Assembly: GCA_964642015.1 (NCBI GenBank)
Contig: CAZXLF010000004.1
Span: forward strand, 20,738 to 84,737
DNA from: an uncultured Planctomycetia bacterium
Lineage (GTDB): Bacteria; Omnitrophota; Gorgyraeia; 2-02-FULL-51-18
Direction: 5' to 3'
Length of the DNA: 64,000 nt
Position numbers and translations under genes: made by a program
Notes under the pieces: model-generated
Database searches by the model: none
Seen by the model: only the letters and a program-made list of their open reading frames with translations
Told to the model about the DNA's origin: nothing
Shown here: positions 6,992-47,400 of the stretch, piece by piece
How positions within the stretch are numbered: position 1 is the stretch's first letter
Layout: every line of letters begins with the position of its first letter

Positions 6992-7028
6992 GAGAAACCC
7001 TCTAAAAAGAGTATTTCATGAGTGGAGT

Positions 7029-9838: not shown

Positions 9839-9848
9839 ATTAATTTCC

Positions 9849-10601
9849 TTAGACTACTTCGCAGGACTTCTTAGGAACCCACCCTGAGCTTTTATTTTCA
9901 AGCGATAGGTAGAACCAATCTCTGGACTCATCAATCACCCTAGCTTCTGCTCCTTCATGAAGAACGAATGCCTTGGTTTCTCGGTCCGAAGGGCCATAAC
10001 GGGCTTCGACCTCTTTATCAAGAATGATCACTTTGGGATCTTTCACATCGAGCCATTTGAAAATAAAAAGAACCGTGGTTACGACAAAAAAAATCGCGGC
10101 CAAAAAACTAAATCCGCGAGTAAAAGTTTTAACGGCAGGCGCCATAAAACCAATGAATGAAAATAACAGGAATAAAATCAAAAGCCCGCTCAATATCATC
10201 GCTACTTCGTTGACGGCTAATTTATCTGCGATCCTTCTGATAAACATGCGTGTAATATCTTCGTCGGCCGGTTCGATCTTGTCTGTGATCGCGCTTTTGA
10301 CAACATCAATATTCCATCGAACATCTTGGTCCCGCGGAGAAATCTTGAGAGCGCGCTCATAGAACACAATCGCTTTGCCTTTATGGCCTAGCTTAAAATA
10401 AGAATTCCCCAAATTATAATCAAGCGCAGCAGTTTCTTTCCCTGACTTGAAAATGTCTTCGTAAAATTCAATAGCCGATTTAAAAGAGCCTGACTGGTAT
10501 TTATTATTGGCATCTGACCAAGTCGATTGATCAGCGGCAACGGCTGGTTTCACTATCAAGGTCACGAAAAGCAATAAAATAGCGATATCTTGTATCTTCA
10601 T
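9849..10601 (-). CDS. batE: BatE-like protein (signal peptide, TPR repeats, TM segment, C-terminal SH3b-like domain)
   Basis: 250 aa. Last gene of the Bat-type operon. TPR (YNLGNSYFKLGHKGKAIVFYERALKI) plus a C-terminal SH3-like region (…GWVPKKSCEVV). Confidence 0.65.
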   Translation of the reverse strand: MKIQDIAILLLFVTLIVKPAVAADQSTWSDANNKYQSGSFKSAIEFYEDIFKSGKETAALDYNLGNSYFKLGHKGKAIVFYERALKISPRDQDVRWNIDVVKSAITDKIEPADEDITRMFIRRIADKLAVNEVAMILSGLLILFLLFSFIGFMAPAVKTFTRGFSFLAAIFFVVTTVLFIFKWLDVKDPKVIILDKEVEARYGPSDRETKAFVLHEGAEARVIDESRDWFYLSLENKSSGWVPKKSCEVV

Positions 10602-12565: not shown

Positions 12566-12572
12566 TATAAAT

Positions 12573-15672: not shown

Positions 15673-16598
15673 TTTTTCGCTGCCTCTTCTTCCGCAGGCT
15701 TTGTCTTCTCCACAATATTGGACAAGATCCCAGTCAAACGTTCTTCCCAGGACCGTGGAGGAACATATTTTGCGAATTTGACCAAATCCGAACTTTCAAG
15801 CAATTCTTTGATTTTTTCGATCAGATCCGAAGAAAATTCCTTTTCCTTTAAAGTTTTGACAATCTCAAAAGTTGTCAACTCAAGTGTTTCTACTTGAAAT
15901 CTCCTTTCGAGATACCGCCTTAAAATGTCGGCCAGTTCGCTGTAAAACTCCTTCACTTTTCCGTCACTCAAGAGCGCTTTGCCCTGCAAACGGCCAAGCT
16001 CAAGCATTGCGCGCTCATGCGGAGGCTTGAGGCTTTCGAGATCGATCAATTTTTTATTCCGTCGACGTAAGACGATCTTAACAATAAGCCAAATGATCAA
16101 CATCAAATCCAATAAAGCCAAGATCAGCGTTCGCAACGCGGTTAAATCAAACGATATCGGGCCTTTGATCGGACGGATATCTGTTTTTTCTTTAGGATTT
16201 TTTATGACGCTGACGACCTTGATGCTTACAGGTTCAGTCCAAACCTGGCCTGAACGGCCTCCTGGGTCAGTAAAATAAACTGGGAAAGGAGGGATCTGCT
16301 GTTCTCCTAACTGAAAAACGGTCAATTTCAATACAAAAGTCTGCTCGACCATTTCTCCCACATCGCGGGAAGATGCCGCCGCAACGCTTTTTATTTCAAA
16401 TGAGGCAACAGAAGTTTTTGGCGACGGGGTAACAATAGAGAAATTTCTGGGATGGCTGATCTGTACGGATAGTTTGATCTCATCACCGATCGTGATCTTT
16501 GTCGGCCATGCGCGTGTCTTGACCTGAAAAAGACCATCCGCAATCGAAGACTGTTGCAGAGCAAAAATAAAAAATGTAAGTAGAAAAAACTTTTTCAT
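15669..16598 (-). CDS. Bat-operon-associated hypothetical membrane protein (signal peptide plus internal TM). The ORF extends to 16637; the likely start is MKKFFLL.
   Basis: Its position between the DUF58 gene and batA mirrors known Bat/MoxR operons. It has a 4-nt overlap with batA. Confidence 0.55.
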   Translation of the reverse strand: MKKFFLLTFFIFALQQSSIADGLFQVKTRAWPTKITIGDEIKLSVQISHPRNFSIVTPSPKTSVASFEIKSVAAASSRDVGEMVEQTFVLKLTVFQLGEQQIPPFPVYFTDPGGRSGQVWTEPVSIKVVSVIKNPKEKTDIRPIKGPISFDLTALRTLILALLDLMLIIWLIVKIVLRRRNKKLIDLESLKPPHERAMLELGRLQGKALLSDGKVKEFYSELADILRRYLERRFQVETLELTTFEIVKTLKEKEFSSDLIEKIKELLESSDLVKFAKYVPPRSWEERLTGILSNIVEKTKPAEEEAAKK

Positions 16599-16647
16599 GT
16601 TCATAACGCCTGCGTGGTCAATCGACGCGAAGATCAAAAAATTGGAA

Positions 16648-26412: not shown

Positions 26413-29400
26413 TTAAGCGGCTTGTTCGATCATTTTCTTCATAAGCCGGAAGAATTTGACCGTCTGATCGATGGGGGCTTTTGTGATGGCTTTTAAAGCA
26501 AAATGTAAAACTGTCTCTATAGTTGCTTTTCCTTCCAATATCTGTTTCAACGTTTGCGTATCGGGCCTTTCGCCAGCCAACGTGGCATAAGCGTCATGGA
26601 ACCCTTCAGGAATATTCGCGAGGTCTATTCTTCCAGAATAGATCGAGACTTTCAGCAAGGCCCTGAAAGCAGGCACTTCGCCTTCTGCCAATAAATTCAC
26701 CGGCATATTGACGAAACCCTGCGTCAAACCTTTCTGAGCTACATCGATCTTGACATACGCCGCGTCTTTTAAGTTTTCCGGTATTTCAGTTATGAAAAGC
26801 TCCTTGGCTCCGGGGTAATTTAACGCCTGTTGGACCAAATGATCCTTACCACTCACCTTGAAGAAAACATTCTTGCCGTAATTTGATGTTTGAGCTTTCT
26901 TGATCTCGACGATCAGATTATCCAGATAAAACTGGAATGAAGGATTGTCCATCAGATCAAGATCGATTTCAGCGATTACGGCTTTATCGATCGAATTGGC
27001 CACGCCTTCCAGATCGGCATCCACTTTATTGTTCACAGCATCGACCATCGAACGAAGATCCTGAATGGTCAGTGCGGAATTAAATTTATCTGACTGTGGA
27101 ATTTGCGTATTTACCGCTTTCTTTGAAAGTTCAAGTTCGATCGGACTGATTCCTTTCGCTTCGGCGATCAATTTTGCACCGCTCCGTGACAACGTAAATA
27201 TATATGGCTCGTTTGTTTCCTCATTGAGCTGGAGAGATAATTTCCTACCGTCCACTTGCGGGAATGCGAATGCCACGCCCGAGAAAAATCCTTCAAGCTG
27301 AGAATGAATGTCCTGCTTCAAACCTGGTTTGAAATCCACGGTCGGCGTGCTGGCCAAGGGGATCGCATGAACAGTTGCCGGTTTTTGTTCCGCGAGCCTG
27401 GCCCCGCTGGTCGCATCTATATAATCCCTTTCTATCTCATAAAAAGCGGTGGAGTTTCTTTCGACCAAACTCCTGTAATCATCGATGATTTGATGACCAA
27501 AAGCTATTAATTCCCCTGTTTTACGGTAAAGCGATCTTCTGAGATAAAACCGAATAAGCCCGTTCAATCCGCTTAGACTGAAATCCGCCTCTTCTTCAGC
27601 GCGATCTCGCATGATCACAAATGTTCCGCGCAAGATCCTTTCGGCTGCGACAGGTTTTTCCGCCCAAACAGCGACATGCACAAAATCATTACGGCGTACG
27701 ATCAAATGGTGCAGATCTTCGCCAATACGCGGGTAAAGTCGGTCAACTTTAGCCGATCCGTCCAAAGCCTTCTCTGCGCTGACAAGAAGACTTCCCGCCT
27801 CAATAAAAAGATCCGGTGAAGTTGATGCTGATTTGCCTCTCACGATCACCCGCGCGCGATCGGCATATCCCTTAGCCACAAGATTATTTCCCTTGATCAT
27901 AAGAGAGGCTATTTGATCTTTATGAATTTCGCTGACTACATTTCTATCCAAAAATTCCATACCAAAACCTAAAAGCTCCTCAGCGTGCATTAAGTCATGA
28001 GTACCCTCAGATACGGGAATATCGATGCCGACATGCGCAGCCGCGACCGCTTGTGCGGCAAACTTAATGATCACCTGTTCAGATTCAGCTTTGACACCAT
28101 TTAAAGAATGATGCTCCTGTTCTAGCTGTAACAAATGTGAGAAAGTTTCTTCGGCTAAATGTAAACGATCATGAGCAACAAGATCAATGACCAAGTCACG
28201 TTGCCCGATGATCTGACGGCGCAATTCGTCTTCAGAAATTACCGGAGCTGCGGGCAGAGCTGAGACAACTGAGACAGGTTCAAGCGAAACCGTTTTTTCT
28301 ACTCGCGGTTTTTGCACAGCAGCTCTCTGACGAGGCGCGCCCGCTCTCAACTCCGCAAATTCTTGGCGCAATCGCTCGACCGTTGCGCTGACTTGAGCAG
28401 CGCGCTCATTACCTTTGGTGCCTAAAACTTTCCATACCTGATCGGGAGACAATGCCTTATCAGCCATCTCTTGTTTCATGATCCTGCTGATCACAGGATG
28501 ACTAACTTCTACACGGGGTCCGGAAAGAATTTCCCGGATCTTTGGATAAACAGGCGGCTGCTGATTTTTTATTGCTTGGATTTCCTGCTCTATTTTAGAA
28601 AGTGCTTCTTCAATAGCATCCAAACGATTCGCGATGATCTCAGATTGCCGCTCTTTCGAAATGCGGCCTGTTGATCCTTCCGTAATACCGGCTGCTTTGC
28701 GTGCCGTCTGGCCCATGCGCCAAAGTACTGCTTCCGTAAGCGTACCGCCCTGCGCAGCGGAACGGTCCGCGACGTTGATAATCGTCGGTTCGCCGCCTTC
28801 CGCCAAAATTTCTCTCACTAAACGTTCGGTTTCCAAACGATATTCTTCTTTTTTGGATATCGCAAGTCTTGCGCCCTTCACAGGCAATACTTCCTGTATT
28901 TTACTTACCGTCTTATTCGCATCGTTAATGGCTTGTTGATTGATAGATCTCAACACAGAAAAATTACGCAAGAAAACACGGCGTGACTCACGAAGTGCAA
29001 CCGACTCAGGTGATAACTCGAAAGAAGGGCTGAAAACCAGTCCTTCTTCGGAAAGCTGCCAGGAACCGGAAATATCGGAAACCGGGAATAGCACCTGAGA
29101 AACAAGCTCCGAAAGAAATTCAAAAGTCCCAAAATTCAGCTCATAAACATGCAGTAATTGATTGACCAAAATACGGAACGCTTCGGCAGTGATCTTAGAT
29201 GCGGTAAAATGCTCGATGGACCTTTTTTCGTCGTTCGGTAAAATATCAAATGTTCTTTGAAAATATTCATGCGCGATCACAAGCCGAAGAGCGTTGGGCA
29301 AGCTTCTCAGCACGTCCGAAGCGATATTTCTATCTATGACAATATTGGGTTCACGGAATATGCCCGGCAACAGCGCTTCTATCGAAGCAACGTGCGCTTT

Positions 29401-32400
29401 CACAAAATCTGTTATCGGGAAGACATTATTTCTCATAAGATTAAACAAAACATTCAAGCTGTCTTGAACTTCATCACTACTGACAGTGACCGCTTGAGTA
29501 CGAGGTACCTGACGCTCAAGCCAAAGCCGGTAATAGCTTTCAATCCTTTGATTAAGGGTCTCTGCGGGGAACTTTGTCAGATCGATCACGCTGGCTGCAA
29601 ATTCCATCAAAGCGATCATCCACATCAAGCCTTGATCGATCAGATAAACATCCTGCCAGATCAGATTTCCTATATCCGGCGGGATGGAAGGATTTTCCGA
29701 TAACCTGGCACCCGCAGGCATCTGCTCGGAAGATGGGCGTAAACGGTCCGTGTTCGCGTAAGGGAAGAAATCCGGTATCACGCCATTTTTAAGGTCTTCT
29801 TTGATGCCGTTCCAATAAGTATCTTTCAATAAATCCGCATGAACTTGTTTAAACGCTTCGACCAAATAAGGCGGAACGAATTTCATGGTTTCCGTCTCAA
29901 GAAAATCAGGCACAAACCAGTCGCTATCAGGAACATAGAACCAATCATCCAAATTCATCAGCTGGTCCGGATCATAAGAAGGCCACGGCGGTATGGACTT
30001 GAAGTTCATTTCAGGCAGGTCTTTCAGATGATCAAAATCATACAGCACAACTATCCCGGAAGGTGTGATGCCGAAATTCTTAAAATCAAATTCGCCTGTC
30101 CAAACACCGGCCGCCGCCAAATCCTTCAACGCATATCCAAAATCAATAAGGGCTTTTTTTCTGTCCTCATCTGTTCTGCCCGGAGCCTCCCAAAACACAT
30201 CGAACGGCGTGACCTGCCTTTGAACATAAACACGCTTCAATAAGACAACATCGCCGTTGACTATGACCATTCTAGGAGCCTTGCGGACCAAGTAGTCCAA
30301 TAGATCCGGCGGGAAGTTGGTTCGCGGGATCGAGAGATTTTGAAAAGACATCGCGTCAAGCATCCTTCCTACCCGATCCATATCATGGACTTTTTGATAC
30401 TGCTGCATAGTGAATGTGTGATCCTGGCGGAATGGATCTATCTTTTCTGATTCGTCTTTCATGATCTTGAAAACATAGGGAAAATGATCAATAGCCAGCA
30501 CTTCCATGACTCTGCCTCGAGTTCCGGGAGCAAATTTGAATTGCGTGCCGGGCACCTCTAAACGTTCATTCAAAGCCTTCCTGAATTCTGTTTTAGCCAG
30601 AGTCTCAAAACCTATGGATGAATAAATATCAGAAAGCGACCGCTTGGGAAGGATGGATTCCAAGAATTTGGCAAGCTCGCGGTGATGTTCCGCTTCCACA
30701 TGGAAATTGGAACGCACGTAGCTGAACAAACGGCCGACTTCCCCTTCTCCAACAAGCACCGTATCCGCTTCAACGCCGGTCTCTGTATTCAAGAAAGGAA
30801 TTGCCAATGCAATATAACCGTTTTGTGTCACGATCCTCCCGACAAGATACGCGCCTTTGTTTCTGTAGAAAATATTCGGAAAAAATTCTACCTTATATTC
30901 TCCGGGAATATTGTAACTCTGTAATTTCGATTCCAATTTGCGCGAAGCCAGCTGAACGTCTGAATTAAGATCGAAAAATAGGCCTTTGAATGGCAAGCCA
31001 TTGAAAATATCATGAAACAATTGATCAGTGGTTCCGCCAGCGGTTTTTTCATACGTGCGGTAAAAACCTGCCGGCTCGATAACATCGGGAAGTTCACCGT
31101 TACTCAAATATTCAATAGGTATATTTTCTTCAGAAAATACGCGCCTCATAACAGAATACAAGAAAATAAGTGCCAAATCGCTGTCGTAGCGACCTTTTAT
31201 CAGTGATGAATAAGATTTTTTAACGTCCTGCCACGAATCGTAATCCTTCACACGATCTGACAACAAGGTTCGCACCTCCCCTTCAACCCGATTCAAAGTT
31301 TCCCGATAAAACCGAAGTCTTTCATTGGCATCGCTTAACACTCCGTTCCATTCACGTTTTTCAAAACGTAATGCTGAACGGCCAGTGATCCACTTGAATC
31401 GCGAATAATAAGCTTCATAATCTTCGAGTAGTTTTTTAGCGACTTCATCGGAGTTTGCGGCGAGTCTGGCTCCATAAAACTTTTGTCGGAGATCCTTCCA
31501 ATACTGAGGATTAAGCAATGTAGTGCGGAATGTCTCACTGAAAACTGGTTTATACTTATCGGGGGCTAGCGCCAAGATGATATGTTCGGGAACAAAATCA
31601 TTCGGAGACGCTGATATCCAATCTTGATCCGGCACATAAAGGTCTGCGCCCTGACGCACAGGAATAGAAACAATTTCTTTGGGTAAAGATTCAACACCGT
31701 CCTCATGGTCATAATAGACCACTCGTCCGCTCGGAAGGATTCCGTAATTGAACAATTCAAGACCTCTTGGAAGATAACCGCTCTGCGCCAATTCCTCCAA
31801 TGCCCGGCCCAAATCAATAACAGCTTGCTGTTGTTTTTCTTCTGAAATTTGGGAATCATAAAGATAAAGATTTAATGGCGTCGCATACGGCTGAACGAAC
31901 ACATCCTTTAAGATCACCTTGTCACCGCTGACAAATACACTATTCGGCGCAAATTGTTCCAGTTCATTCAACAATTGCTCGGAAAAATGATCCCGTTCGA
32001 GCGGCAGTTGGGTAATGTGGAGCGTAGGCAAAAAACGAGGGTGATTGATCTTTTCGGCTTCCGTATATCTTGCGAGCACGCCATTGCGGCCGATAAAATA
32101 TTTTTTATCTGACAGATCTCTCGGCACTTTAAAAACATATGGCAATGAAGGCAACACGAAATCTATCATTGCCTTACCACGCACACCAGGAGCAGGCAAA
32201 AATCGTTCGGATAGATTAGACAATAAATGATCATACAAAGCCGGTATAAATATATTTTCTTTCAACTGACCAGGCTCTAACTTCACAAACCCCGGTTCGG
32301 CAAGCCTTGCGCCGCTCCGCCCCTGCTCTGCGATGATATGTTCAACGATATCATTTCTTGTCTCATGGATCTGATCGACCAGCAATTTGCCGTACGCGAT

Positions 32401-35400
32401 CGATAACCGTATCTCAAAACCTCCATCGATCAGCCCTGTAAAAATATTTGAAAGAATATTCAAATTTAAGCGAAGCTGATTCCCCCGCAATTCGGTCAAA
32501 GTTAACTGGTTCAGAACCTGAACAAGTCTATAAATATCCCTTGGGTTGACCGCTAAGTTAATAAGCCAGCTACGCGCTTTGTCCAATTCTAAACTGAGAT
32601 TTGTTAACACCTGAGCAGTTTCATTTGGAATAAAAGGATGCTGTAACAATATTCGTATCGTTCTAAAGTAATTTGAAGCCAAACTCAAACGCTGTCTTGG
32701 GCCGCTTAGAGGTTCTTCAGCCAGTCTTGCGCCTACAGATAAAGTACCTGCCAGCACCGGTAAACGATAAAAATCGTCGTCACTACGCAAGTTTAGACGC
32801 GACGATGCGATCTTTTCAGCGAGAATATTTCCAGTCTCAACGGTTGGTTCCGAGCTAGCCCGCACGATCTGTGTTTTTACCCTGCGCCCGCTGTCTGTTT
32901 TATTAAAAATGATCGTAATAATTACCTGCTCAGAATTACCCGGGATCCTTTCCCTGATAAGCTCCACTGTAATCGGAGAATTAGGTATCTTTTTGTCTAT
33001 CGCTAACCGAGCACCTTTAGAAGACGCTTCAAGTCTTACCTGTTTATATGCTCTCTCAAATACATCCGCCAGACCACTTCCAAGCGCAGAGCGGACTTTT
33101 TGAAATTCTTCCTCATATTTCCCTTCAGCGTGCGCAATACTCGAATGTTCAAAATCGATGAAGCTTACAACCGGCATTGTATTAGCATCGCGATGTACAA
33201 AGATATGATCTTTTTTGAGCTCAAAAATATCGCGTTTCGCTTTTCTGATCAGGTCCTGGTGTACTACACCATAATTGTGTAGTCTGCCCAATGCCAGACC
33301 AAGCGCTTCAACTTCATCAGCTGTGATCTGCACCGTACCTATACTAAAACCATCAACCTGATCTAGAATGATGGCTTCTTGATCACCGGGCAACCTAATC
33401 CGATCGACTCTTGGGCCTATGCTTTCAATACCCTGATGATAAGCGCGGTGAGAAGCTAGAAATTCGGTCTTTAATTTTTCTTCGAGACCCGTCCCGTAGG
33501 TTTTTATGTAAAAGACAATCTGGCCTTCGCGTCCTTCTATTCGGATCCTGTATTCCCAAACGGCATCATCGATGCGCCGTTCGGACAATTCCGTAATATT
33601 TTCCAGATCCGTCAAACCCAAAAATTCAAACACTCTTTGATTTCCGGCTCCGAACCGGAGTTTGAATAGATCCTTCGCTTCTTCCCCTTTAAGTAACGCC
33701 AAGCGCGCACCTGAGGTCATTTCGTCTAAAGATTGAAGCTGTGCCAAAGCGTTATACAGCAATCCATTTTCCTGAAGCAAAACCCTGGCATTAGGGTTTA
33801 CCAATCCGATGGTTGCGTCACTGGCAATATTCCCGATCAATTCGTTCAATTGCTGAATCCATTCACCGAGGCGCATGGATCTCTTCAATGTTGAACGGTA
33901 ATTTACGGCAAACTGTTTATAAGAGCGTCCTATATCACCGGCCAAAACATCGATCTGGTTCTCCGTCTTGACCAATTGAGGCTTCCCCTGGAGTCTAGTA
34001 AAAAGATATTTAGCTTCCTTCAGCCAATACGAGGCAACATCCAAGCGGACAGTATAAGCAAACTTGTTATTAGATTTTGATGCCACATCGGACCAAGCGG
34101 TAAAGACACCTGCGAAATCGGAAACAACATCAGCTTCAGAAGTTTTGGAGATGGATGAAACCCGCGTTCTCAGCAAATCCCATGAAGTTTTTAAATAGTC
34201 ATAGGCTTTTTGTTGGTCATTTTCATCGATAGCGTCTGCGGCTAAAATAATGTTTTGCCGGGCCGATCGCAGATCGCGGATGATCTCCTGATTATCGGTC
34301 TGTTTTATCAGTATCTGCGTAATCGCTGAATCGATCCTGGGCGAGATCCAAACAACGAGTCCGTACTTTACCTGATCAAATTCGTGTTCGCTTGAAAGCC
34401 GCGCGCCGACAGTGTCGTTAAATAGTTGGCCGGAAAAACCCGGAACAAAATCCGAAGGAATCCTGTAATTATGAATCGTCGGCGTCTGGAAAGGATTATG
34501 AGTTTCATTCATGATCGCAAGATTAGCCTGCCGGCGTAATATTGAGGCGACATCCGCCTCAAGTTTGGTGCGGACATCTAAATACTGCCTGGACCATTTA
34601 AAAGCGTGTAAAAATGTAAAATCTTCGACTCTTTTCCGATCGAACGAATCCACGAACGAGATGTGCGTGCCGCCTCTGAGATATTTCCAATAATTGGATA
34701 CATATCTTCTTGATTCCGCGGTCAAAGAAGCGAGCGCCTCTTTTTGATGTCTGGCCTCCGGAGATTCGCCGTTCGGGCCGGCTTCCTGTATTTTTTCTTG
34801 CAGTTCCGTAAGGCGGCCCATGATTTCATCCCGCGACAAAACATCAGGCCCTTTTCCGATCTGCGAAAGCCTCCACAGTACACGGTAGTAATTCACGACC
34901 ACGAGCGCCTTTAAATCCAAAGACGCCGCCAACCCATAAAGATCTAAAAAGATATCCAGATCGCTTGAGACACTACTGATATCACCAAAAAAAGCGATCA
35001 GTTTGTATTGCACAAGCATGTCTAGCTCTTTCCAATACAACGCGGAAGTCACCTGATCACGGTCCTTATGCGAACTGATACTTTCAAGGTCTCTAATGAA
35101 CTCTGCCAGGTCCTGTCGGTCATACGGTGTCGTGAACCGTGCGTCAGGAGCTCCGACAAGACGAACCAATTTTCTTTTGAAATCGTCAAAACGCTTTTGA
35201 TACCAGCTGACGATAAAAAGTCTTCCGGCCACTTCCGTATAAAGCAGATCTTCAGATGCCTGGATGATCTGCCTTTTAACATCGGAAGGTACAGAATCGC
35301 TAAATTGACGGGATTTTAGATATTGGTTCAATCTTGGTTTGATGAATTCATCAAGAGATTTGCGCACGGTTTCTTCTGTGTCCCAATTCCTAGCGTCCAT

Positions 35401-38400
35401 GGCAACAATAAGAACCGGCAATTCAAGCTTCAGAAATCCAATGAACGGTGAATCCGTCTGACTGATGCCCAAAATTAAATACAAACGAAGCCTTCCCAAT
35501 TGGGACGCCAAACGAGGTTCAGTGTCTTTAAAATACTCTTTTGCCTGCTGGATTTGCTGTTCGGTCGCAAAAAGTTGATTGTATGCAGGAATATTCCGAA
35601 GACGAGCCGGATCAACCTTTCTGACTCCCAGATAAACTTTGGCATCAGATTCTATCTTCCTGGCTTTCTGTGCTTTAAACGCATCAAAATGGTCCACGGC
35701 GTCCGCCCACTGACGGTAATAAGCCTCAAATTCTTGTAACCATGCCTCGACTTCCGTCAGCGCAGAACCATTATTTTGAAAGCGGATAAGCCGTCCTTTA
35801 AGCTCAGCGATATCGGGAACATTGCCGGCATCATATCCGGCTGTGATAAGAGCTATTCTGACGCGCTTTTCATTGGCTTCGATCTTTTCCATCTTCTGCA
35901 TCGTCTGCTCGAGGGACAAGCGCAACCATTCAGGGTATAGAGCACTTTCAGAAAAATGTTCAGTCGTTGATAGCCGCGCGCCTGACGCTGGAACATTTGC
36001 GCTCTTGCTGATCTTCAAACCTTTCTCTTCTAAAAATCTCCTTAATTCTTCCGGCTTTGATGTATTAAAGAAAAGAAAGAAATGATTTCGTCCCACTTCT
36101 TCCATGTTCTCAAGGCCGACGCGATCCATACTCACCGCACCGATCAGACCTTTTAACTGCATTTCAGGGATATTTCTTCTAAGGAATGACCGAAAAGCCC
36201 TGAATCTCATATGGGCATCGGTCACTTCAAAAGCAACATTCTCATTCTTGAAATAATGCAGCGCATCTTCCAGTTCATAATCAAGCTTCGCAAGATCCGA
36301 TTCTTTAAAACCGCCGGCGAATTGTCCCTGTCCGGATAGCTCGACATATTTTCTCGACGCATTCACAAGCCTTCTCCAATAATCGCCTTTGTTGATCCTT
36401 TCAAATATATTCTTTCCGTTTTCGGGATCATAAATCTTCCAAACAGCAACTTGCAGTTGCTCTGAAGCAACTAAACCTGAAACAGTTTTATAAGAGATGA
36501 CCTGTTTCCTATTCGGGTCATAACCTATCCGATAGATCAAACGCATCGCAGAATCGAATGAGCCGACTCCGTGAAGTTTTCTTCCGTTCTCTTCGACGGA
36601 ATTCTGATCGTCAACAATGATCGATTGCAACACCAATTGTTCGGCACCTACTCCGGTAAGGCCGGTGTAACGTTTTTTGTAGGGATCGATTCGTTGTAAA
36701 ACTTTTTTCAGCAGAACAATATCATCGGTGATCTGATGAGGACTCCCGCCCAATTTCCTGATCTGGCTCATCTGATCCTTAAATAAATCGGAATACAACG
36801 TCCGGTTCTTGCCTATGGTCAACTGGATTTTAAGCGGCTTCTGAGCAGAATTCTTAAGCTTGATCGTGACCATCCGACCCAACGCATTAGCTTCTTCATT
36901 TTTTTGGATCATATCCACGTGATAACCTAAATTTCCGAATGACTCTGTCAATTTTAGAATGAAAAGAGGCAGATTATGCTCATAAACAGACCAGAACCTC
37001 TCGATATCCTGATCATGATCAAAAAGCAACGCAAAATCAAAATCCGCGTTATCATCGATGAACGTGCTACGTCCCCTGGATCCTGTCTGAATAAAGCGAT
37101 GACTGCCTGCCACGATCGATCTTAATGACTGATCTAGCGCCCGAACAACGTGCCTATTCTTTTGGCGATAATCCGCTGCAAGTCGAGCTCCGGAAGCGAC
37201 CAAAGTAACTGCGCCTTCAAAATCCTTACCCAATCCTCTTAAAGGCACTTGAATGCCATTATCCAGAATGATCACACCATATTTTTCTGAACCGATTGCT
37301 CTGACTTCATATCTAAAGAAAACACCTTCTGTTTCGAATGTTTTGCTGTCATTTTTAAAAGATATCTCGATCTTTATCCGTTGACCTTTTTCCAACAAAC
37401 CGGAATTTTGGACAACAGCGGAAAGATTGAGCGTCGGATTCGTTTCTGCTAAACGTGCGCCGTTAGCTTGAGGGCCGGTTTCAACAATGTGCTTCATTTC
37501 TGCTAAAAACCATTCTAATTCGTCGAGCTGCTGGTAGTTTGACGCGATAACAACCGTGTTTTCTCTGGCGTCTAAAACCAGATCATGCGCTCTATACAAA
37601 TAAGCCTTGGCCTCTATGATCAGTTGGTCAGCTTTTTTGACATCTTGAACTTCAATAGCTTCTCTTAAAACGGGAATGATCGACTGGAATGCTTTTAACG
37701 GTTCAAGATAGTCTTGCGATGAAACACTAGCAGAAGCTGGTTCATCCAAATTTTTTTCTTCCTCTGGCTTTGGTAAATACCCTAAACTCCTGAGTTCCTT
37801 CTCGTATTTTGTTTTTTGCGAAGGAGTTAATTCTGCCAAAGACGTAGAACCGACCCACTCAAAATTTCCTTCAGCAGTTTCATAACCGCGGCGAAGGATC
37901 GCTTGGGGCATAAAAGAATTGTCGAGAACAACTATTTCAAGTCCTGGCCGTGGTATAGAATCATGTTCGACGTTCACAAACCGAATCAGCAATGGTTTTT
38001 CATGATAAGACAAAGGTGTGCCCACATGAACTCTTTGTCCGTTACGGTCATTCAGAACGTGCGTCGGCACGCTATCTTGTCTGCGGCTGCGACTCGAGAC
38101 CTCAAGAACAGACTGTTGTTTTGCCTTGGATACAGCAAAACTTCTAAAACGTCTGGTCGCTTCTTCCCAAGGGCGCTCAAGCTCATGGGTTTCGGGATTG
38201 TAATATTTGCTTGAGATGAATGCCCTATTCTCTTTTTCTTTGGATGTAAACTTGCCGCGATTGGCGTCGTCATCTTTGGTCCGATAAATATCAATGCGGG
38301 ACACTTCGGCCTGAGAGTTGACAATGATCACTTCCGAGGGTATCTCATCCAGTTTTGCGCGAAATTCATCTCCCAATCGCAGTGCGATACCTCGCGTCAA

Positions 38401-41400
38401 AAGCGCTTCACCTTTATCATCCAATTTGACTTTGTGAAAATATGGCTGCGCGGCTTTACCATCGACAAGATTTTTGTAAAACCAAATCATTGTGCCCGGA
38501 ACTAAAAAGTAGATCGGGTCATAACGCTTGGTTCTGGTGTTCCATTTCCATTTTCCTACCGCTTGTTTCACATCGGTCTCATCGGGACTTAAAAATCCGT
38601 AAGCATAGATCTCCTTTTTGATACCTTCTTCTCTTTGACGGATATAGATAAAAGCCGTGTCGGCGCCTTTGGTGACTTCTTCGGATCGCAATTCCATAGG
38701 GCGATGAAAATTAACTGTCCTGTCTCCGATCCGGAACGCATAAAAGTTCGCCGTTTGGTTTTGTTGCCGCTCGACCTTCACCGCTCCGTCAAGAACAGGT
38801 ACGTCCTGTATTTTGAGGGTAGCCAATTTCAAGTGAACATGGCTGTTGCCTATAATAAAGCCCTTATCTTTTGAATAATAAAATGCTTTATATGCCATTG
38901 ATTGAGTGCTTGAATCAAAAATATGAACCCATAAGAAGCCTTTCGCATCTTGGCTGAATCGAAGAATAACCGGTCCTTGACCGGGTAGGCCGGGCTTAGG
39001 AACAATGATTCTGCGTTTGTCAGCTTTATTAGTTTCAAGCCGGAACAAAATCACAGTGCCTCGGACGTTTAACGCTTTTGAATATCCCGGCTGATCGAGG
39101 CCAAAATTTTTAACCAAATACGCGGCCGCTTCCTGATCCTTGTCGACAAAAGCTTTTTTCATTTTTTCTGTCAAAACGCGCCATTGAGAATCAGATATGC
39201 CTTCAGCTTCTTCACTTAATCTTGCGCCCGAAGTAGATTCGCTCAACATGACGACCAATTCATTTTGCAGATCACTTAATCTTTTATAGTGGGAAGCGAT
39301 ATAAGCCAGATCCCTTTTCTCGTTCTGGGCGATCTGCGATGCCTCATCGAGAAGTCTTTCGGCCTCGATCGAAATACTTAAAGCTTGATCTAATTTTCCG
39401 CGGTTAACCAATTCTTCCGCTTTTTCTATTGCTAGATCAAATTCCGACAGGAATCTATCGTGAGAACTTATGCCCTCAACATTTAAAGTTTCCAGCGGAA
39501 CAGTCTGGTTTAATGATTGTTTGATCCTTTCGAGCCGTATCCTGAACTCGGCGGATTCAGAAACCGGCTTGGAAGCAGCGGGCAATTGATTTTGAAGGCG
39601 AAGTGCCGCGTCTTTTCTCAAGTGTCTAACTGTATCAATAGTGACCGCACCGAATCTGCCTAAAATTTTTCGATGTTCAAGCTCATAAGCGATCGTCGCA
39701 TCATCGGCCTGTTTGGACCCGCCAATACCGTAAGTCATGAACATCACTTCCGCTTCAAGGAATGATAGTTTGCCAAAGCGTTCGATCACTCTGTCTTTTC
39801 TCACACCGATCTCCTTGGATAACCAATCAATGCCGCTGGGATAGAGATGGATCTTCTGACGTGCTTGCGCAACCAGACGTTTGAGATTGCCCGGCGAGAC
39901 AGGTCCTTTAGACCTGGCGTCTTTATAACCCAGGTCCCAAAGTTGACGGGCGATCTGAACCAGTGAAAGCTTTTCATCACCAAGAACATAAAAAAGCTCT
40001 ACGGCTTTTCTTTCCCGCAAGGTCAAGATATTCATACGGGTTTCCGTCAACTGCTCTCTTTTTAATTTGATATCATGGGCCAATACGTACCAGCCATCCC
40101 TTAAGGGAGGCCTGTTCTTTGTCAAACGCAGAGGCAATCTCAAATAATCGGCGCCAACACCTCCTGCGAGAAGATAATTGCGGAGCGTTTGGAGTGAGAT
40201 CCTATGAAGATGGGACAAAGAATTATCGTTGAATTCTTTGTCGCGATATTCTCTTACTTTCTTTTTTACTTCCTGGCCGATAGAACTAGCCAATAATCTG
40301 AAAACGACCCGGTGAGTGCCGATCCCATAGTAATTCTTAAGCAAGATCTGTACTCTTTCGGGCAATTGAGACAGCACCTGATCCGTGATCTTTTCAGATT
40401 CTACGCCGATCTTCGTAGCCAAAACCTCGCGGCCTGTTTTAACATCTTTAAGCTGCTTGACGGTTAAATAGCGTCGAAGTTGAAGTTGGGCTGGCGAAGT
40501 ATAATAACGATTACCCTCACCTTTGATGGCTTCGAACATCTTTTTGTAATCCCTGATAACCGGTCTGCTTATTCCATAATAATAAGAAAGAACCTGCCAT
40601 TGCTCGACAGGTATGGCGTAGATCAATTCTGAAGTGAGCTTCTCAACTGAGATTTTGGCATCAGCGGCCAAACGATTTAGAGCAACGGCATTTTCCTGGA
40701 AAAACCTGTCATCATACTTAGAAAGCCGTGCACCTAAGATGGATTCCATGCCTGATCCATAAGTCCGTGCAAATCCGGCCTTTATTTGATCATCGTTCAG
40801 GCTCGGCACTCTCCCCAAGAAAGCTGCCTGTATCAGATCGTATTCGGACCTTAATACAGATCGATCAGCATCTGCTTTGGCATATTCGAAATCGATGAAC
40901 GAAACTTGATTACTCTGCTCGTCCCAAAATATATTTTCGTTCGTGAGCTCGATCCTTCCCTTCATCTTGTTCTCAAAGCAGAGATCTCTATGTGTGATGC
41001 CTAAAGCATGTAAACGTCCCAAAGCAAACGCAACGGCGCCCATCAAATCCCGGCTTTTTTGTTTCATATCAGAATCTGTCAGTCGGCGGCCTTTGCTTAA
41101 CGTCGTTAAAAGCATGCCTGAAGCCGGTAGAAAATAGATCGGAGGCGCTAAATGATACCGGCCTGCCGACCGCGTTGTCTCATATTCATTAAAACGCTTG
41201 GCAGAATATTCCGGCGAATACAACTTCGTGTAAAAAACGATCTCGCCTTTATCGCGCAACGTCAGCTGGTGACGATAAACTGTTCTGCCGCTGACTGTTT
41301 TCAATTGAGTGAAATCATAATTTACGATATCAACCGGATCTGAAACGCGCGCGACGTGCATCAACGCCTCAGGTTCATCGTTGCCAAAAAATGCTTTGAA

Positions 41401-44400
41401 TTTTTCCTGCGCCAGCCGCGCGCCCGGCGGGTTACGTAAAACTAATTTCCATTTCTGTCCCTCTTCTTTACGAAAACCAAGAGTCTGCGCGATCTTGGAA
41501 GTTTGACCGTCCAAAGAAAGATCTTCCACTATAATATAGGCGACGTTGGGAGATTTCTTTAACGATTCCAGTGCTGCTTCGAATAATTTCCTTCCCAGGC
41601 CTCTTTGCCGATAATTGCGGTCTACCGCGATCTGAGTAATCTCACCCTCTTCGTTCCCCATATCAATGAATGTTCTGGCAAATCCCACGACTTTTCGTTC
41701 TTCATTGCGGACAACAAAAACCTCTCCCTCCACTTCTTCGTTCTCCTGCAAAATACCCTGCATGAAAAGCCACAACCGGCGCCTGTATTCTTTAACATCA
41801 CCGATCAATGGCCGATTCAGGAACGGCATATATTCGTTCTTCCACAGTTCTGCGATCTCATCAACGTCGTCCAATCTCGCCCGTTCAACGCGAGATCGCG
41901 AATCCGCTAGCCGGGCGCCAGACGAGACTGAGATGCCTGTCACAAAGTTTTCCGCCACTAGCCTCAATGGGTCTTGACGATAACTTTCCAAGAGCGGTGC
42001 AGCGGCCGGATTCATCCGTTCCAATAAATGCCATGTGACCTCAACAAAAAGTTTGACCATGGCTCCGTCCAAATAATAATGGCCTTGTGTATCATCTTTT
42101 ATCAGTTTGGCGTTCTTTGTACGAGCCAAACGAATGGATAAATTTGTATCAGACGTGGCAATAAGCGGGTCTTTTCCGCCTATTACAATGAGCGCGTTCT
42201 CCAGGCTTTTCAATCGATTGATATCTCTCCGCGGGATCGCAAGCAAAGGCATTTTTCTGACTATTTGCCAGAATGTTCCATTAAAAATATCTTGGAGCTC
42301 TCTGCGCATGACAATGATATTCATAGGATTCCAAAATGTACCGATAAGCGGAGTGTGCATGATTACTTGGGCAGCGGTTTTGATATTGCTATTCAGTAAA
42401 TGCAGGAAAATCGTATAACCGCCAAAACTAAAACCGGCCATTCCTATGCGTTTTGCATCTATACGCTGATCTTGGGCAAGAAATCTCAGAGAAGCATCGA
42501 CCGTCTCAGTGAGGTCCTGCGACGAATTCATTGGCGCCCCATTTTCGCCATGATGAGGCAGGTCGATACGCAACACGGCAAAACCCGTCCAAACCAAAAG
42601 TTTTTCCAATAAATTGAGATAAGGCTGCTCTTTGCTGTGCGTTAAGCCATGCAATAGAATGACCGCAGGCACCGGATGATCTTTCGATGCGTTTTCAGGC
42701 AGCACATAAAAACCGGGAATATCAGGTTTTTCGGGAAGCGGGATCCGCTGGTCAGGCAGGATCACGGGATTCATTCCGCTGCGGCGGTAATCCTCTTGCC
42801 GGCCGCTGACAAATAGCTCTCTCAATTCTCTCATTAAGCGCCGGCTGCGATTGGGCGAAAGAAGGTAGGTTGAAGCGATATACGCCATATTGGCTTTGAC
42901 CAAAGGATTTTGTTCGACCATCGCATGATAAGCCCATTCGCGTTTCCAAGCGTCATACCAGCCAAATCCGCTGCGGTTCAGGATCTCGATCAAAACCCTC
43001 CGTGCAGTAGCTCCATCAATACCATTGGCATGCGCCATTACATATTCATGTTTCGAGAACGCCAATTTCAGGCGCAATATAAAGCTTTCTTTTTCTGTTC
43101 TATAGTTGCCGGGTCTGACAACTTTTCGGGACTTTTCGGTAGTCACAAAGAAACCATCTTCTTCCAAGCTCTTGAACATGCGCTCGGAAAGAAGTGTGCG
43201 ACCCAAACTCGAACGAAATTCCTTGATCGTGCCGGAATCGAACAGTAACTTGACGGCACGCCGCATGAAACCTTCTTTTCCGACCCCGATCTTCATATAA
43301 TCCACTTGCATGGTACGACGGAAAAAACCTTTCAGGTCTGCTTTTGCCCACGCGACAACAACCGGATTCTTCGGATCAGTGATGTCAAAAACCAGCAACA
43401 GATCATGCCTTTTCTTCTCGCGCCTGAAATCGATCCCTTTTAAGATCACAACTTGAATATTGCTACCCAAATCCCTAAGGTCCCGAGCAACACGGTAATG
43501 TTTTGAAGAGGTAAGGCTTTTTATCTTGGCAAAATAAGGCCTGACATCCATCCTTTCTTTTCTTGGTGTTTTGTAGATGTTGGCCAGCCGCGCGCCTTCT
43601 GTTATAAGTCCGCCTTTGACACCGATAATGCTGTCTTGGATATACCGGAACGATCCCCGCAAGGATCGGTCTTCTATAAGATGCACTGTATTCAAAGAAT
43701 AAACTGCGCCGGCCGCTTTGATCAGTTCTTTTTGCACAGCTTCGGTCATTTCGCGATTCTCTTGCCCTTTATAACCGGCAAGTCTGGCTCCGCCTACGAG
43801 AGAATTTATACTGCCGTCTAGGTAACCTCCTTCAAAAACTTCCTCTACTTGAGACCGGGCCAGTTCAGGTGCAGCTTCTTTTACCACTAGCAGCAGATCA
43901 CGATATTCATCTTCCCTTCTAAGATTCGTCAATCTTTTTGCGCCGCCAAAATCAATGAACTTAATATTTCTTCCGTCCCAATAAAAATGATCCCTCCGGA
44001 GAAAAAGCCTAGGTACAAATGCAAAAGCGCCCTTGTTCAATGCATCGCTATAATCAGCACCGATCAAATCGTTATGCACAAATCCGGCTTCATAATGCAA
44101 GCGGCCTAGCGCAAAACCGATCGCTCTCACGATCGGGAGCGTGATCTGAACCAAAGGAGCTGATGGGGGCAAAGTCTGCGTTTCATCCGGACCCAATAAA
44201 ACTCCGTCGGATTCCTCTTGGGACAGAAAAACAATTTTGTTTTCGGTATCGATCAACAGGCTTTTTGGAGCAAGCCCATATTGATGGATCACGTTTGTAA
44301 TCTCGGCTTCGCGTTTCAAAGAGAATTCAGACCAGGTCTTTGCCAGCCATCCTATGACAGGTATGTCGTATAAAAGACCGTAATATTCTTTCGAATAAAA

Positions 44401-47400
44401 TTTGAATGTTCTTATTGCTCCGCTCTGATCGCGGACCGCCAATTGGTGCTCATTGACCGATCTAACAGCAAGCCATGCTCTTCTTTTGGATTGAGCTGCG
44501 ATGCCGTAATCAACAACGGATAACATCTGATCCGAATCTGTTAAAAATCGAAGCACATCCGATGAACGCTCACCAAATATCCTATAGAATCTGATATCAG
44601 ATACTTGTTCGTTATACATAGCAAGCCGTGCGCCACTGTCTTTTTCAAAATCAAAAACTTGCTGAACTGATTTTTGTTCAGGCATTTGAGTTGAGCGATT
44701 AAGATCAGCGATAATCTGAATAATATCGATCAGTTCTTGCCGAAGATCTCTCAAAGCACGTCTCTGATTCCAGCGAATATTCCAACGAAGCACCGTCTCC
44801 ACCGCACGGCCTAAATTTTGCAGATCACTAATGCGGATTTGTTGACCTGATCTGATTCTTTGACGGAGTGCTCCGGCGGCATTTCTCAGTTTGTAGGAAT
44901 TCAAAGTGAAATTAGATGCTCTTCTGACTACTGCTCTGATCCGTGATTCAATTTCCGTTTGACCCGCTAGGCGAGCGCCCTGCTGTTCTTTGCGGGCTCG
45001 AATCCGTTCATTCACAGTTTTCATAAAAACAGGCAGTTTGGATTTTGCGATGACTCCAATTTCGCGTTTTATCGCTTCTCCGATACCAAGCTGCTCTGCA
45101 TCGGCTGTAAGTGATCGCGCGCGGTCCATGAATTCAGCTCTATCGTCAATCCGGCGCAGGGCATTAACATTTTGCCGTAAGATCTTGGCGGGGTCAGGAA
45201 CTGCAACCGGCTCCAGTTTCTTTGGACGTTTTTCTGTCAAAGCGGCAGATGGCTGGGGCGACACTTCCTTAGCGGTGTGGGGCTTCGCTCTTTCCTCGGC
45301 AACAAACTGCGCAAGATCAAATTGATGTTTGCTCTTCCAACTGAAATAACGAGCCCGGGACTGTTTAGAGTCAGCAAGCCCAAGGCCTTTTAAGACCATT
45401 TCTTCCGTGACTTGCTGATCGGCTGGTACACTTGTAATGATCGCGCGGATGCGATTGTAACGCTGCGTTTTTTCAATCATTACCATCATGTCCCGCACTT
45501 CGGGACGGTCCTTATGAACTTCAAACCATCTCCACAATTCTGTCTGAGAAACTTTATCCGAGGCCTGAATAGTAATGGTTCGTGCAAGATTTCCCATGTT
45601 GATCTCTTCTGTCGGCTGTGTAGTCAGCAAATAAATGATCGCACTCCGCGCAGCTTCAAGTCTCATCTGATAACCGCTACTATGTTTCTTCTCCAAACTT
45701 TTCCGCATGATATCAATAGGCTGAGTCCACTGAATACCCAACGCTTCAAGAGAAGCCGGCTTCAAACTATAGACCTGGCTCATCGTAAGACCTGATCTTT
45801 CGGACAAAGATTTTGGATCAATAGGAATAGATGCTGCCTTCATTTCGGCAACAATAGGTGTTAATATTCGAAGTTTCTGTTCGTCTTTCAGTCTTTCGGA
45901 AGCGAGCCGTGCGCCAGACTTGTCTTCAGCATTTCCGTTGGACACTTGAGAGGCTTGATCTCTGGCAAAAAGGACCGATTTCAATGCCAAAATATCCGCA
46001 GCCGTTCTCCAGTCCGTGTCGTATTGTTTTCGTACATCGTCGACGTTGTTCACAGCGTTCGTCAAACTATCTTTGAGCTTTTCGATAACGATCTCTCTCG
46101 GCCACCTTTCGTTAAAAAGATTCTGCTGCCATTCATAAAATGATACGGTAACACCTCCGGCATTAGCGATAGAATCAGGAATCACGATGCTACCGGCCTG
46201 AAGTAATTTTTCATAAGCCTCATTTGAAATAGCCCCATTAGCGCCTTCGATCACAATATCCGCGTTCAACTTTTGAACATTTTCTTTGGTAATGGAATTT
46301 TCTTTAGCGTTGGCATACATGATAAATGTCTTAAGGTCTAAGAACTCATCTCTAGAATTTAAAAGGCGCGCGTTGTGTATTGTATATTCCGGCTTTGAAT
46401 TCAAGCTCGCAAATCCATTCGGGGCTGCCTTTAGACGAAGTAACGTTTCGATGTCTTTCTGATTGAAACCAGATTCCAAATAAATAATGCCTGACATTTC
46501 GGCGATCGCCTGAAGCTTGATCCCGTCTTTGATGGCTTCAAGCGCGGCAGGGATGCCCACTCCGCCAAGGCCTTCCATCTTTGCCGTCATTCCTTCCAGA
46601 CGATTCCATCCCAATTCCAGACCAACGATCGTTTTTAATACATGTTCAACGCCAAATCCCGTTGATTCAGGACGAAAATGCGATCCCGCATGATCAACAT
46701 CAATGACCTCGGCGCCTGTGACATCCTTTTTAACCAACAATGTTTTTGATGTAAATGTGGCCAGGCTGATCGCTAATTGACCCAAAACCGAATTTTCCTG
46801 AACAGGGTACCCTGTTTGTCTCAGAGACGTAAAATATTTAGCGACAACAGTCAGATAGGGGGTCTGCGTCATTGCCTGCATTCTTTTGCTACGATAATCG
46901 CTTTCGACCTGGTCCAAAAGTTGCTGTAGATCTCTGGGATACGCTTGAAATTCTGTTCTCTTCCCATCGGGCATCGGCGTTTCTCTGGCTTTTTGGATAT
47001 GCAGTTTAAGGTATTCATCCGTCATGATATCCATATCCGCCGCCGTGCTTCCCATGTCGGGCGCCGGAATATCGGTGCGCGGTCCTACTCTGCCGGCCTC
47101 AAAGAGGGCTTGTATGAATCGCCTGATGAAATCTGCTCTCAACCGACCGCTTGTCTCCCTGTCTAATCCCTGACTATAATCTCTGATCACAAAAGATCCG
47201 TTTTCTTGCTCAACATCGGCAAATAAAATAACTCCTTTAGCTCCTCCATAGGGTAATTTAGCAGCAGCCGACTTGATCGTCATGCCTACTGCAAGCGCTT
47301 GGGTTTCTTCTCTGACCCATTTGCGCAAAAAATACCTCAATTCGTAAATATTCATTCTCGCGCGGAATTGATTGAATAATTCCATGAACCCCTCATCGGA

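Follow-up and report, generated by a model that had tools for sequence, protein, structure and literature searches.

Isocitrate dehydrogenase (IDH) kinase/phosphatase, AceK, stands as the founding case of protein phosphorylation in bacteria and is seen as a dedicated single-substrate regulator. It is a stand-alone protein of about 570-610 amino acids (aa), classically encoded with aceBA, and acts on IDH. This study concerns two AceK-type units that form part of a single giant protein, together with the short peptide that delimits them. The protein is encoded on a 64,000-nucleotide stretch of DNA, referred to here as the window, from an uncultured bacterium labelled Planctomycetia (GTDB lineage Omnitrophota; GenBank assembly GCA_964642015.1, contig CAZXLF010000004.1).

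The catalytic triad of AceK is D457/N462/D475, while K336, K461 and D477 are essential too, and the mutations D457A and D477A abolish its phosphatase activity (PMC3747045, PMC6591243). IDH is recognised through a loop formed by residues 484-510 (PMC9138534). In MARTX and clostridial toxins, the cysteine protease domain (CPD) cleaves after Leu and before Ala or Ser at interdomain boundaries (PMC3153235). Giant proteins of Omnitrophota are also suspected of being cleaved, although information on the cleavage points is lacking (10.1101/2023.11.21.568195), and a 'multi-enzyme metabolic cluster' class has been described among giant proteins (10.64898/2026.06.07.730766).

Two AceK units in one giant gene

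The giant open reading frame (ORF) begins at TTG, a start that GGGGGA precedes, and its product is split by junction motifs into about 30 units of 65-1,405 aa each. An initial annotation, made by a model from the sequence alone, had described a full AceK-like unit and a second, kinase-only copy near the C-terminus. Every peptide that it quoted (FYRNKGAYLVGRIVT, FPYVFKIMKD, MDRVGRM, FKNFGITPSGIVVLYDFDH and HADLLKDTYW) is present in the minus-strand frame where it had been placed, and the AceK copies sit at 82-90% of the ORF length.

26413..60123 (-): giant ORF, 11,236 aa plus stop, about 30 modules (ORF list)
29713..31473 (-): module 26, complete AceK unit, giant-protein aa 9551-10137, 587 aa, opening with GARLA and stopping just before the next GARLS
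30565..31440 (-): AceK regulatory domain (PF20423) of module 26, aa 9562-9853, Pfam 228.7 bits (cut-off 25)
29755..30543 (-): AceK kinase/phosphatase domain (PF06315) of module 26, aa 9861-10123, Pfam 219.6 bits (cut-off 29.3)
31474..32313 (-): module 25, AceK kinase-domain-only unit, aa 9271-9550, 280 aa, PF06315 145.8 bits (cut-off 29.3)

Such a gene might be suspected of being an assembly chimera or a chance reading frame, with AceK contributed by a fused neighbouring gene, but only its unusual length points that way and the idea is effectively refuted. The frame is stop-free across 33.7 kb at 45% G+C, the Pfam-positive modules all share it, 18.5 kb of it were found identical in an independent Logan assembly, and the same architecture and motif recur in dozens of unrelated metagenomes.

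Module 26 corresponds to E. coli AceK from end to end: its residues 11-578 are collinear with residues 9-569 of the 578-aa enzyme (3EPS/3LC6; phmmer against the PDB, E = 4e-75). The identity is specific rather than that of a generic kinase motif, since both AceK-specific models are matched with scores that greatly exceed the cut-offs and no protein other than AceK has the regulatory domain; the AceK assignment is secure. In an unfiltered profile search of the giant protein, the regulatory domain was matched once only and the kinase domain exactly twice. The best 120 matches to the full unit among 5.8 billion proteins (word-indexed search) are all stand-alone, 539-615 aa long, which bears out the proposal that its architecture here is non-canonical, and the unit is at most 40% identical to any stand-alone AceK in that collection. 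Module 26 is most likely a whole AceK gene product captured as one polyprotein unit. As the initial annotation had supposed, the window appears to hold no stand-alone aceK: Pfam matches to aceK, icd, aceA and aceB products were absent from the 20 scanned of the 23 other window ORFs of at least 150 aa, the remaining three being ORFs of the Bat-operon region (13691-16637).

Module 25 covers profile positions 1-242 of the 256 in PF06315 and lacks the C-terminal tail beyond about E. coli residue 553. No regulatory domain was found in it by Pfam or by the unfiltered profile search, nor did the latter reveal a second one hidden upstream in modules 23-24. With 29-31% identity, the two window kinase domains resemble one another no more than they resemble stand-alone AceKs, which rules out a recent tandem duplication. 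Close relatives of the AceK pair were not found in GTDB representative genomes or in metagenomes of the Joint Genome Institute (JGI).

Active sites were compared between both window units and 41 stand-alone AceKs, in E. coli numbering. Module 26 retains G317, G320, K336, D364, D371, the DRVGR motif, K461, N462, D475 and D477, and its Gly-rich loop and Lys336 read APGTRGRVM...YVFK. Its substitutions are D457 to Glu (aa 10011), E478 to His, R467 to Pro, R488 to Lys and E503 to Asp, and it departs at 14 of 79 invariant columns (stand-alone AceKs: median 0, maximum 17). The glutamate at position 457 would still provide a carboxylate at the catalytic base. The recognition loop (residues 484-510) is of near-native length and keeps W505, with Lys in place of R488, a residue that is 100% conserved in stand-alone AceKs.

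Module 25 is far more degenerate. It retains G317, G320, K336, N462 and D475, with the loop APGVRGKAM...YVFK, and departs at 28 of 55 invariant kinase-domain columns; it carries D457G, K461F, D477E and D371P, E478 is replaced by Asp, R467 by Pro, R488 by Val and E503 by Gln, and NH-PR stands in place of the DRVGR motif. Given D457G, K461F, D477E and the destruction of DRVGR, the unit is probably inactive, and on this reading of its residues it is probably a pseudokinase, an old and decayed kinase-only relative. The initial annotation had thus been right that two AceK kinase domains are present, yet 'in duplicate' overstates the case. It had singled out the ATP loop and catalytic Asp for checking: loop and K336 are kept in both copies, while D457 has become Glu in the full unit and Gly in the kinase-only one.

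A junction peptide between the modules

Each AceK copy is bracketed exactly by GARL[A/S] peptides. This was missed by the initial annotation, as was the fact that AceK is one cargo among about 30 junction-delimited units.

32299..32313 (-): junction GARLA, aa 9271-9275, opening module 25
31459..31473 (-): junction GARLA, aa 9551-9555, between both AceK modules
29698..29712 (-): junction GARLS, aa 10138-10142, closing the full AceK unit

GARLA and GARLS around module 26 stand within a few residues of the points where E. coli AceK natively starts and ends. Across the giant protein G-A-R-L occurs 29 times (0.38 expected) and is the sole over-represented 4-mer; the next residue is Ala in 23 cases, Ser in five and Thr in one, Ser often precedes the word, and the five residues that follow the motif are strongly polar (hydropathy z = -4.8). 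Near-cognate variants occur as GARFA (aa 579), GTRLA (aa 1041) and GRRLT (aa 6345). G-A-R-L was not found in real ORFs elsewhere in the window.

All six codons are in use for both the Arg and the Leu of the junction, and the constraint therefore acts on the peptide and not on the DNA. A DNA repeat or recombination site is excluded by these freely varying synonymous codons. Internal translation starts at the junctions are also unlikely, since neither a conserved Met nor a Shine-Dalgarno sequence follows the motifs. The pattern L-[A/S/T] marks module boundaries in 29 instances, each a putative cleavage site. A literature search for the motif word gave no relevant match (a surname only), and the junction code appears to be undescribed.

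A protein family with conserved ends

The giant protein belongs to a family whose members share an N-terminal domain and, in some cases, a C-terminal module. Window aa 22-527 are homologous to the N-termini of several further long proteins, designated P0131 (43% identity, E = 1e-109), P0198, P0213, P0143 and P0259. The conserved end regions of the window protein are the following.

59992..60123 (-): signal-peptide-like N-terminus with a basic n-region, hydrophobic SISTALVICFLF, then SYA|NP (read from the sequence)
58384..60060 (-): conserved N-terminal domain (N-domain), aa 22-580, predicted TIKI/TraB/Ere/ChaN-type hydrolase fold (AlphaFold2 model, alignment)
26416..27405 (-): module 29, conserved C-terminal module with the end ...MKKMIEQAA-COOH, common to P0191 and the ORF upstream of P0191

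A search with the N-domain returned 30 proteins, mostly fragments ending at contig ends, and GARLA immediately follows the domain in seven of the fragments. Named homologues come from Omnitrophota (four), Planctomycetota (one) and Elusimicrobia (one). At least 524 N-domain relatives exist in JGI metagenomes, as found with an N-domain alignment and hence independently of AceK; in some the domain heads a long ORF, in others it stands alone. From these metagenomes, 79 N-domain loci were fetched. ORFs that reach 1,400 aa or more were counted as long, and most of these are truncated by the 10-kb flank.

Long N-domain ORFs (n = 36): [GAS][AS]R[LM][ASTG] enriched by a median of 25-fold, 24 ORFs with at least five copies, median Cys 0.085%
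Stand-alone N-domain ORFs of about 520 aa (n = 35): motif observed 2 times against 0.7 expected, median Cys 0.77%

In the 36 long ORFs, the motif is spaced at a median of 228 aa. The junction consensus of the family is [GAS][AS]R[LM][AST], realised as G-A-R-L-A/S in the window protein. An AceK unit was absent from the examined part (about 3,900 aa or less) of these 36 ORFs, and AceK is therefore an occasional cargo and not a core component. As read from the sequences, the family layout is a signal-like N-terminus, a TIKI-fold hydrolase domain, variable enzyme-sized units and a C-terminal module conserved in three members.

An AlphaFold2 model of the N-domain, built from 22 sequences (predicted local distance difference test 81.8, predicted template modelling score 0.74), shows a TIKI/TraB/Ere/ChaN-type alpha/beta fold with a parallel beta-sheet core. 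Invariant or near-invariant in the 22 sequences are QDAH, E99, E152, E260, R440 and GGxH, which include H71 and H468. Tiki itself reportedly cuts Wnt3a at a Leu|Ala site, which can serve as a lead only. The TIKI superfamily holds sequence-specific endopeptidases (RRSP, Tiki), with a common 2His/2Glu catalytic motif (PMC6254334). On the strength of the model, the N-domain is a candidate for the junction-processing enzyme.

At the other end, the C-terminal module closes with ...M.KM[VI].QAA in all three proteins that share it, namely the window protein, P0191 and a second GARLA polyprotein whose gene lies just upstream of that for P0191, and may be a sorting or secretion signal. Homologues of modules 27-29 were not found among the 5.8 billion proteins, a weak negative in that the database is without truncated giant-gene products. 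At locus L083, two GARLA polyprotein genes stand in tandem (1-4699 and 4793-13102).

The N-terminus of the giant protein resembles a Sec signal peptide, and a crude hydropathy scan picked out only this segment and at most three weak internal hydrophobic segments. The protein is also almost devoid of cysteine: 6 of 11,236 residues (0.05%), compared with 0.9% in neighbouring window proteins (P about 2e-35), a depletion not explained by nucleotide composition. Both window AceK units are Cys-free, whereas each of 120 stand-alone AceKs has at least 0.33% Cys, and the window AceK has other residues at four sites where 63-78% of AceKs carry Cys. With its low Cys content and signal-like N-terminus, the carrier protein looks exported.

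AceK as a recurrent cargo

An exhaustive phmmer search with the kinase-only unit as query found AceK domains within 14 long proteins, including P0131 (6,037 aa), P0198, P0143, P0201, P0213, P0241, P0191 and P0209. Most of them contain 0.04-0.16% Cys. GARL[AST] occurs 11 times in P0131 (0.2 expected) and six times in P0191 (0.1 expected), and AceK units in four of the proteins are bracketed as follows.

P0131, aa 796-1379: AceK unit with GARLS on the left and GARLS on the right
P0191, aa 81-688: AceK unit with AARLA on the left and GARLA on the right
P0201, aa 396-964: AceK unit with AMLA on the left and AMLV on the right
P0143, about aa 3209-3795: AceK unit with AGRL on the left and PGRL on the right, the sole two xGRL words in 4,574 aa

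Boundary motifs seen in P0198 and P0259 were post hoc and too loosely defined to serve as evidence. Two of the long proteins are without the TIKI-like head: P0201 (L085 10001-23611), which has a recurrent D-x-[AS]-M-[LI]-x in about 14 copies, and P0209, in which RSELR occurs five times (0.08 expected). What the junction words of different giants have in common is a Leu or Ile in the same relative place. A SurA/Rotamase_2 gene adjoins P0201.

AceK units were also seen in shorter proteins. P0130 (1,228 aa) consists of two complete AceK units in tandem, and P0127 (810 aa, 0.12% Cys) has an AceK unit between an N-terminal signal or transmembrane (TM) region and a TM helix at the C-terminus. Giant genes are therefore not the only place where exported or membrane-bound AceK-like proteins occur.

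The main evidence on function comes from a comparison of 16 AceK units, namely the full unit of the window and 15 others from long or mid-length proteins. G317, G320, K336, D364, N462, D475 and D477 are almost always retained. Stand-alone AceKs conserve R467 and R488 at 98-100%, yet the window unit and most long-protein units have other residues there, and W505 of the recognition loop is lost in about half of the long-protein units. A core that is kept while recognition residues vary suggests conserved chemistry with a changed substrate. This makes the repurposing proposed in the initial annotation plausible; its further term 'effector' is plausible as well, while delivery into another cell goes beyond the data in that no secretion or delivery apparatus was identified.

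These residues also bear on whether the AceK units are catalytically dead relics that serve as structural or binding parts only. The kinase-only copy, which departs at 28 of the 55 invariant positions (D457, K461 and D477 among them), and the D457E and E478H changes of the full unit speak in favour of this. However, the retention of core residues across 16 deeply diverged units indicates purifying selection on catalysis, and the window full unit itself retains G317, G320, K336, D364, N462, D475 and D477. That both units are dead is therefore improbable, the relic reading being likely for the kinase-only unit and unlikely for the full one.

Similarly, the full unit, released or still in the chain, could control the producer's own IDH and with it the branch between the tricarboxylic acid (TCA) cycle and the glyoxylate bypass, the giant gene being merely an odd mode of expression. 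Two complete domains, largely intact catalytic residues and a recognition loop of nearly native length would suit such a canonical function. It is nevertheless hard to credit: R467 and R488 are replaced here and in most long-protein units (W505 is kept here, lost in about half), 14 of 79 family-invariant positions differ against a stand-alone median of 0, every Cys has been removed from the unit, and the N-terminus of the carrier is of the export type. Moreover, icd, aceA and aceB were not found among the window ORFs scanned, and AceK is absent from the examined part (about 3,900 aa or less) of the sampled family members, unlike a housekeeping regulator.

Cleavage or scaffold

The junction peptide is likely the cutting code of a large bacterial polyprotein family, as several features of the sequences suggest. 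A strict short word stands between complete enzyme-sized units, it has lineage-specific variants, and targeting-signal-like sequences follow junctions. The most hydrophobic segment of the window protein starts seven residues past a junction, and P0131 has a single strong Tat-type signal, GARLAGEHMMSRRNFLKGVTAGILFLPALLSA, starting 11 residues past one, with signal-like regions at aa 3864-3900 and 5437-5475. P0131 also carries a junction nine residues before its C-terminus. Cleavage would further be in keeping, by analogy, with the MARTX and clostridial toxins (PMC3153235).

54469-54570 (-): targeting-signal-like GARLARNTVKRVFLISISVFVLAAGG right after a junction of the window protein

A weaker Tat-like sequence, SRRDFLRRG, was also noted directly after a junction in P0131.

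In the proposed mechanism, the polyprotein would be cut at its junctions, most simply after Leu, either by its own TIKI-like domain or by a separately supplied protease, and cutting would free about 30 separate proteins. The freed full AceK unit would act as an ATP-dependent Ser/Thr protein kinase/phosphatase with conserved chemistry; its target is probably not the producer's own IDH, because the substrate-recognition surface has diverged. The kinase-only unit would be a pseudokinase serving binding or scaffolding. Since ATP, acetyl-CoA and NAD(P) are needed, the units should work in a cytoplasm, most likely another cell's (prey or host), with the producer's own cytoplasmic face in second place. 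Another cell's cytoplasm is a reasonable guess because the carrier is Cys-free and has a signal and because Omnitrophota are reported to live as predators or in dependence on hosts.

The strongest competitor is an uncleaved multi-enzyme scaffold, in which the N-terminal helix would be an anchor and GARLA a linker or docking peptide, and the AceK units together with three small kinases would regulate neighbouring modules in cis, for example the Glu/Leu-dehydrogenase-like or SecA-like ones. Five kinase-fold units (two AceK domains and modules 11, 15 and 22) do lie beside metabolic-type enzymes in one chain, the modules require cytoplasmic cofactors, sequence searches recognise no protease, and the 'multi-enzyme metabolic cluster' class and an anchored, cytoplasm-facing topology have precedent (10.64898/2026.06.07.730766). 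Yet passive linkers seldom hold four invariant residues over 29 copies and in homologues of 30-60% identity, the junction nine residues from the C-terminus of P0131 would have nothing to link, and a canonical Tat signal immediately follows a junction. Module boundaries that mirror native AceK termini also argue against a scaffold, and extreme Cys depletion would be unexplained for a cytoplasmic protein. The scaffold is accordingly rather unlikely, though it deserves more weight than a canonical function or dead relics.

Several points tell against a cleaved and exported polyprotein that releases a retargeted AceK, in which cleavage, protease, export, enzymatic activity and substrate are all reached by inference. 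Even with E up to 1, none of the modules was recognised as a protease by Pfam or NCBIfam, and nothing was found by phmmer against the PDB (giant-protein aa 1-9270 and the full AceK unit) or by comparing an N-domain profile with the PDB. The TIKI superfamily also includes esterases and a heme-binding protein. As stand-alone N-domain proteins exist without a polyprotein, the N-domain need not be the junction protease, and P0191 has junctions yet no N-domain in the same polypeptide. A Sec-type signal together with a Tat-type signal after an internal junction is hard to fit to one topology, the internal signals may be relics of gene capture, and an inner-membrane-anchored, cytoplasm-facing topology is favoured for many Omnitrophota giants (10.64898/2026.06.07.730766). 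Within the full AceK unit, the catalytic base D457 is Glu. Lastly, neighbour-joining places 15 of the 16 AceK units in one group that contains no stand-alone sequence, whereas M_P0159 falls with the stand-alone AceKs, but bootstrap support for this grouping is weak at 39/100, and a single origin of the embedded units is therefore not claimed.

In summary, it is held with high confidence that AceK units are cargo within a family of junction-delimited, modular giant proteins. The whole mechanism, a cut and exported polyprotein releasing a retargeted AceK, is evenly balanced between being right and wrong. A broader generalisation can be offered tentatively and with somewhat less confidence: that [G/A/S]-[A/S]-R-[L/M]-[A/S/T] is the cleavage code of widespread, previously unrecognised polyproteins of 2,000 to more than 11,000 codons, possibly cut by their own TIKI-fold heads into dozens of Cys-free enzymes, with AceK-derived kinase/phosphatases of altered substrate recognition that would hit proteins of another cell (prey or host) and not the producer's IDH.

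Other modules and the genomic neighbourhood

The remaining modules of the giant protein include the following.

49678..53892 (-): module 6, divergent SecA-like motor, 1,405 aa, with SecA_DEAD, the preprotein-binding (cross-linking) domain and a second P-loop domain
45916-48108 (-): Glu/Leu/Phe/Val-dehydrogenase-like module, 731 aa, extended at the N-terminus by about 200 aa and with a gap within the dimerisation-domain match
43792-44634 (-): module 11, small unit with weak resemblance to the Bud32/Kdo-like kinase fold
40735-41424 (-): module 15, small unit with weak resemblance to the Bud32/Kdo-like kinase fold
33016..33711 (-): module 22, small unit with weak resemblance to the Bud32/Kdo-like kinase fold, paralogue of modules 11 and 15

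A scaffold/wing domain was not detected in module 6 by Pfam, which agrees with the divergent SecA-like modules reported in giant Omnitrophota proteins. Alpha/beta-hydrolase and GNAT units are also among the modules, while about 20 further units gave no family match (Pfam, with Pfam and NCBIfam at E up to 1 on unannotated modules).

The giant gene is cellular and chromosomal, with ilvD and panE on its flanks. Besides these two, the window flanks carry core genes for transketolase, glycerol kinase, CobO and 2-oxoacid:ferredoxin oxidoreductase as well as a MoxR/Bat operon. The closest IlvD (82%) belongs to a metagenome-assembled genome (MAG) labelled Planctomycetia. In ilvD neighbourhoods of 80 other genomes, neither a comparable gene nor the motif was found.

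Outside the giant gene, in 1-26400 and 60200-64000, as in the window overall, nearly every gene lies on the minus strand, and cumulative GC skew drops monotonically. The MoxR-BatA-D-type operon, which includes TPR proteins, spans about 9.8-18.7 kb, and transketolase is encoded as separate N- and C-terminal genes (1516-3362). A 286-aa ORF at 61337-62197 (-) has no Pfam match, overlaps the 2-oxoacid:ferredoxin oxidoreductase gene at 61391-63154 (+) and is probably spurious.

Comparison with known systems

The full AceK unit shares with E. coli-type AceK (3EPS, 3LCB) the two-domain layout, which is collinear over residues 9-569, as well as the Gly-rich loop, K336, K461, N462, D475, D477 and DRVGR. 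However, E. coli-type AceK is a stand-alone protein of about 578 aa, whereas the window units are embedded in 11,236 aa. The full unit also differs in D457E, E478H, R467P and R488K and in being Cys-free, a degenerate kinase-only copy lies alongside it, and icd and aceBA were not found among the scanned ORFs. AceK as a recurrent cargo with a conserved active site and a diverged recognition loop points to unknown substrates and to a second life for this kinase fold.

MARTX toxins are likewise very large, modular and Cys-poor, with conserved ends and swappable enzyme cargo, and they also hold a TIKI-fold unit (RRSP) and an alpha/beta-hydrolase. The TIKI-fold domain is a cargo unit in MARTX, while in the window family it is the conserved N-terminal head. 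The junction word is a strict five-residue one in the window protein, whereas MARTX requires only the P1 Leu; cargo amounts to about 30 units against 3-5, and it is housekeeping-like (SecA-like, dehydrogenase, GNAT, AceK), unlike that of MARTX. In further contrast to MARTX, RTX/hemolysin-type repeats were not found in any module by Pfam, and Peptidase_C80 gave no match at E up to 1 in the giant protein, which has just six Cys overall.

The closest relatives in architecture are the giant Omnitrophota proteins (West-Roberts et al. 2023; the 2026 'multi-enzyme metabolic' class). These also exceed 10,000 aa, contain a SecA_DEAD and preprotein-binding module without scaffold/wing together with GNAT and kinase units, and are suspected of cleavage, and most of the named homologues of the N-domain belong to Omnitrophota MAGs. 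These giants are reported to have numerous TM helices as well as peptidase domains of the C39 or S8 type, neither of which was detected in the window protein. AceK, the junction motif, Cys depletion and the TIKI-like head are unmentioned in the two reports (10.1101/2023.11.21.568195, 10.64898/2026.06.07.730766). In this setting the junction peptide outweighs AceK in importance, offering a testable answer to whether and where giant bacterial proteins are cut. The motif also permits giants to be split computationally into units for structure prediction and annotation, delimits a family that numbers several hundred or more and points to a candidate for the processing enzyme.

Viral polyproteins offer a further parallel, in that a single ORF gives many mature proteins and the short conserved site between units differs by lineage. 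The bacterial giants also seem to have lineage-specific junction words, namely GARLA, GARM, SRLA and possibly AMLA or RSELR. Unlike viral polyproteins, the window gene is cellular and chromosomal, its units are metabolic or regulatory enzymes, and its protease is only a candidate. If cleavage does take place, these giants would represent a cellular counterpart of viral polyprotein expression.

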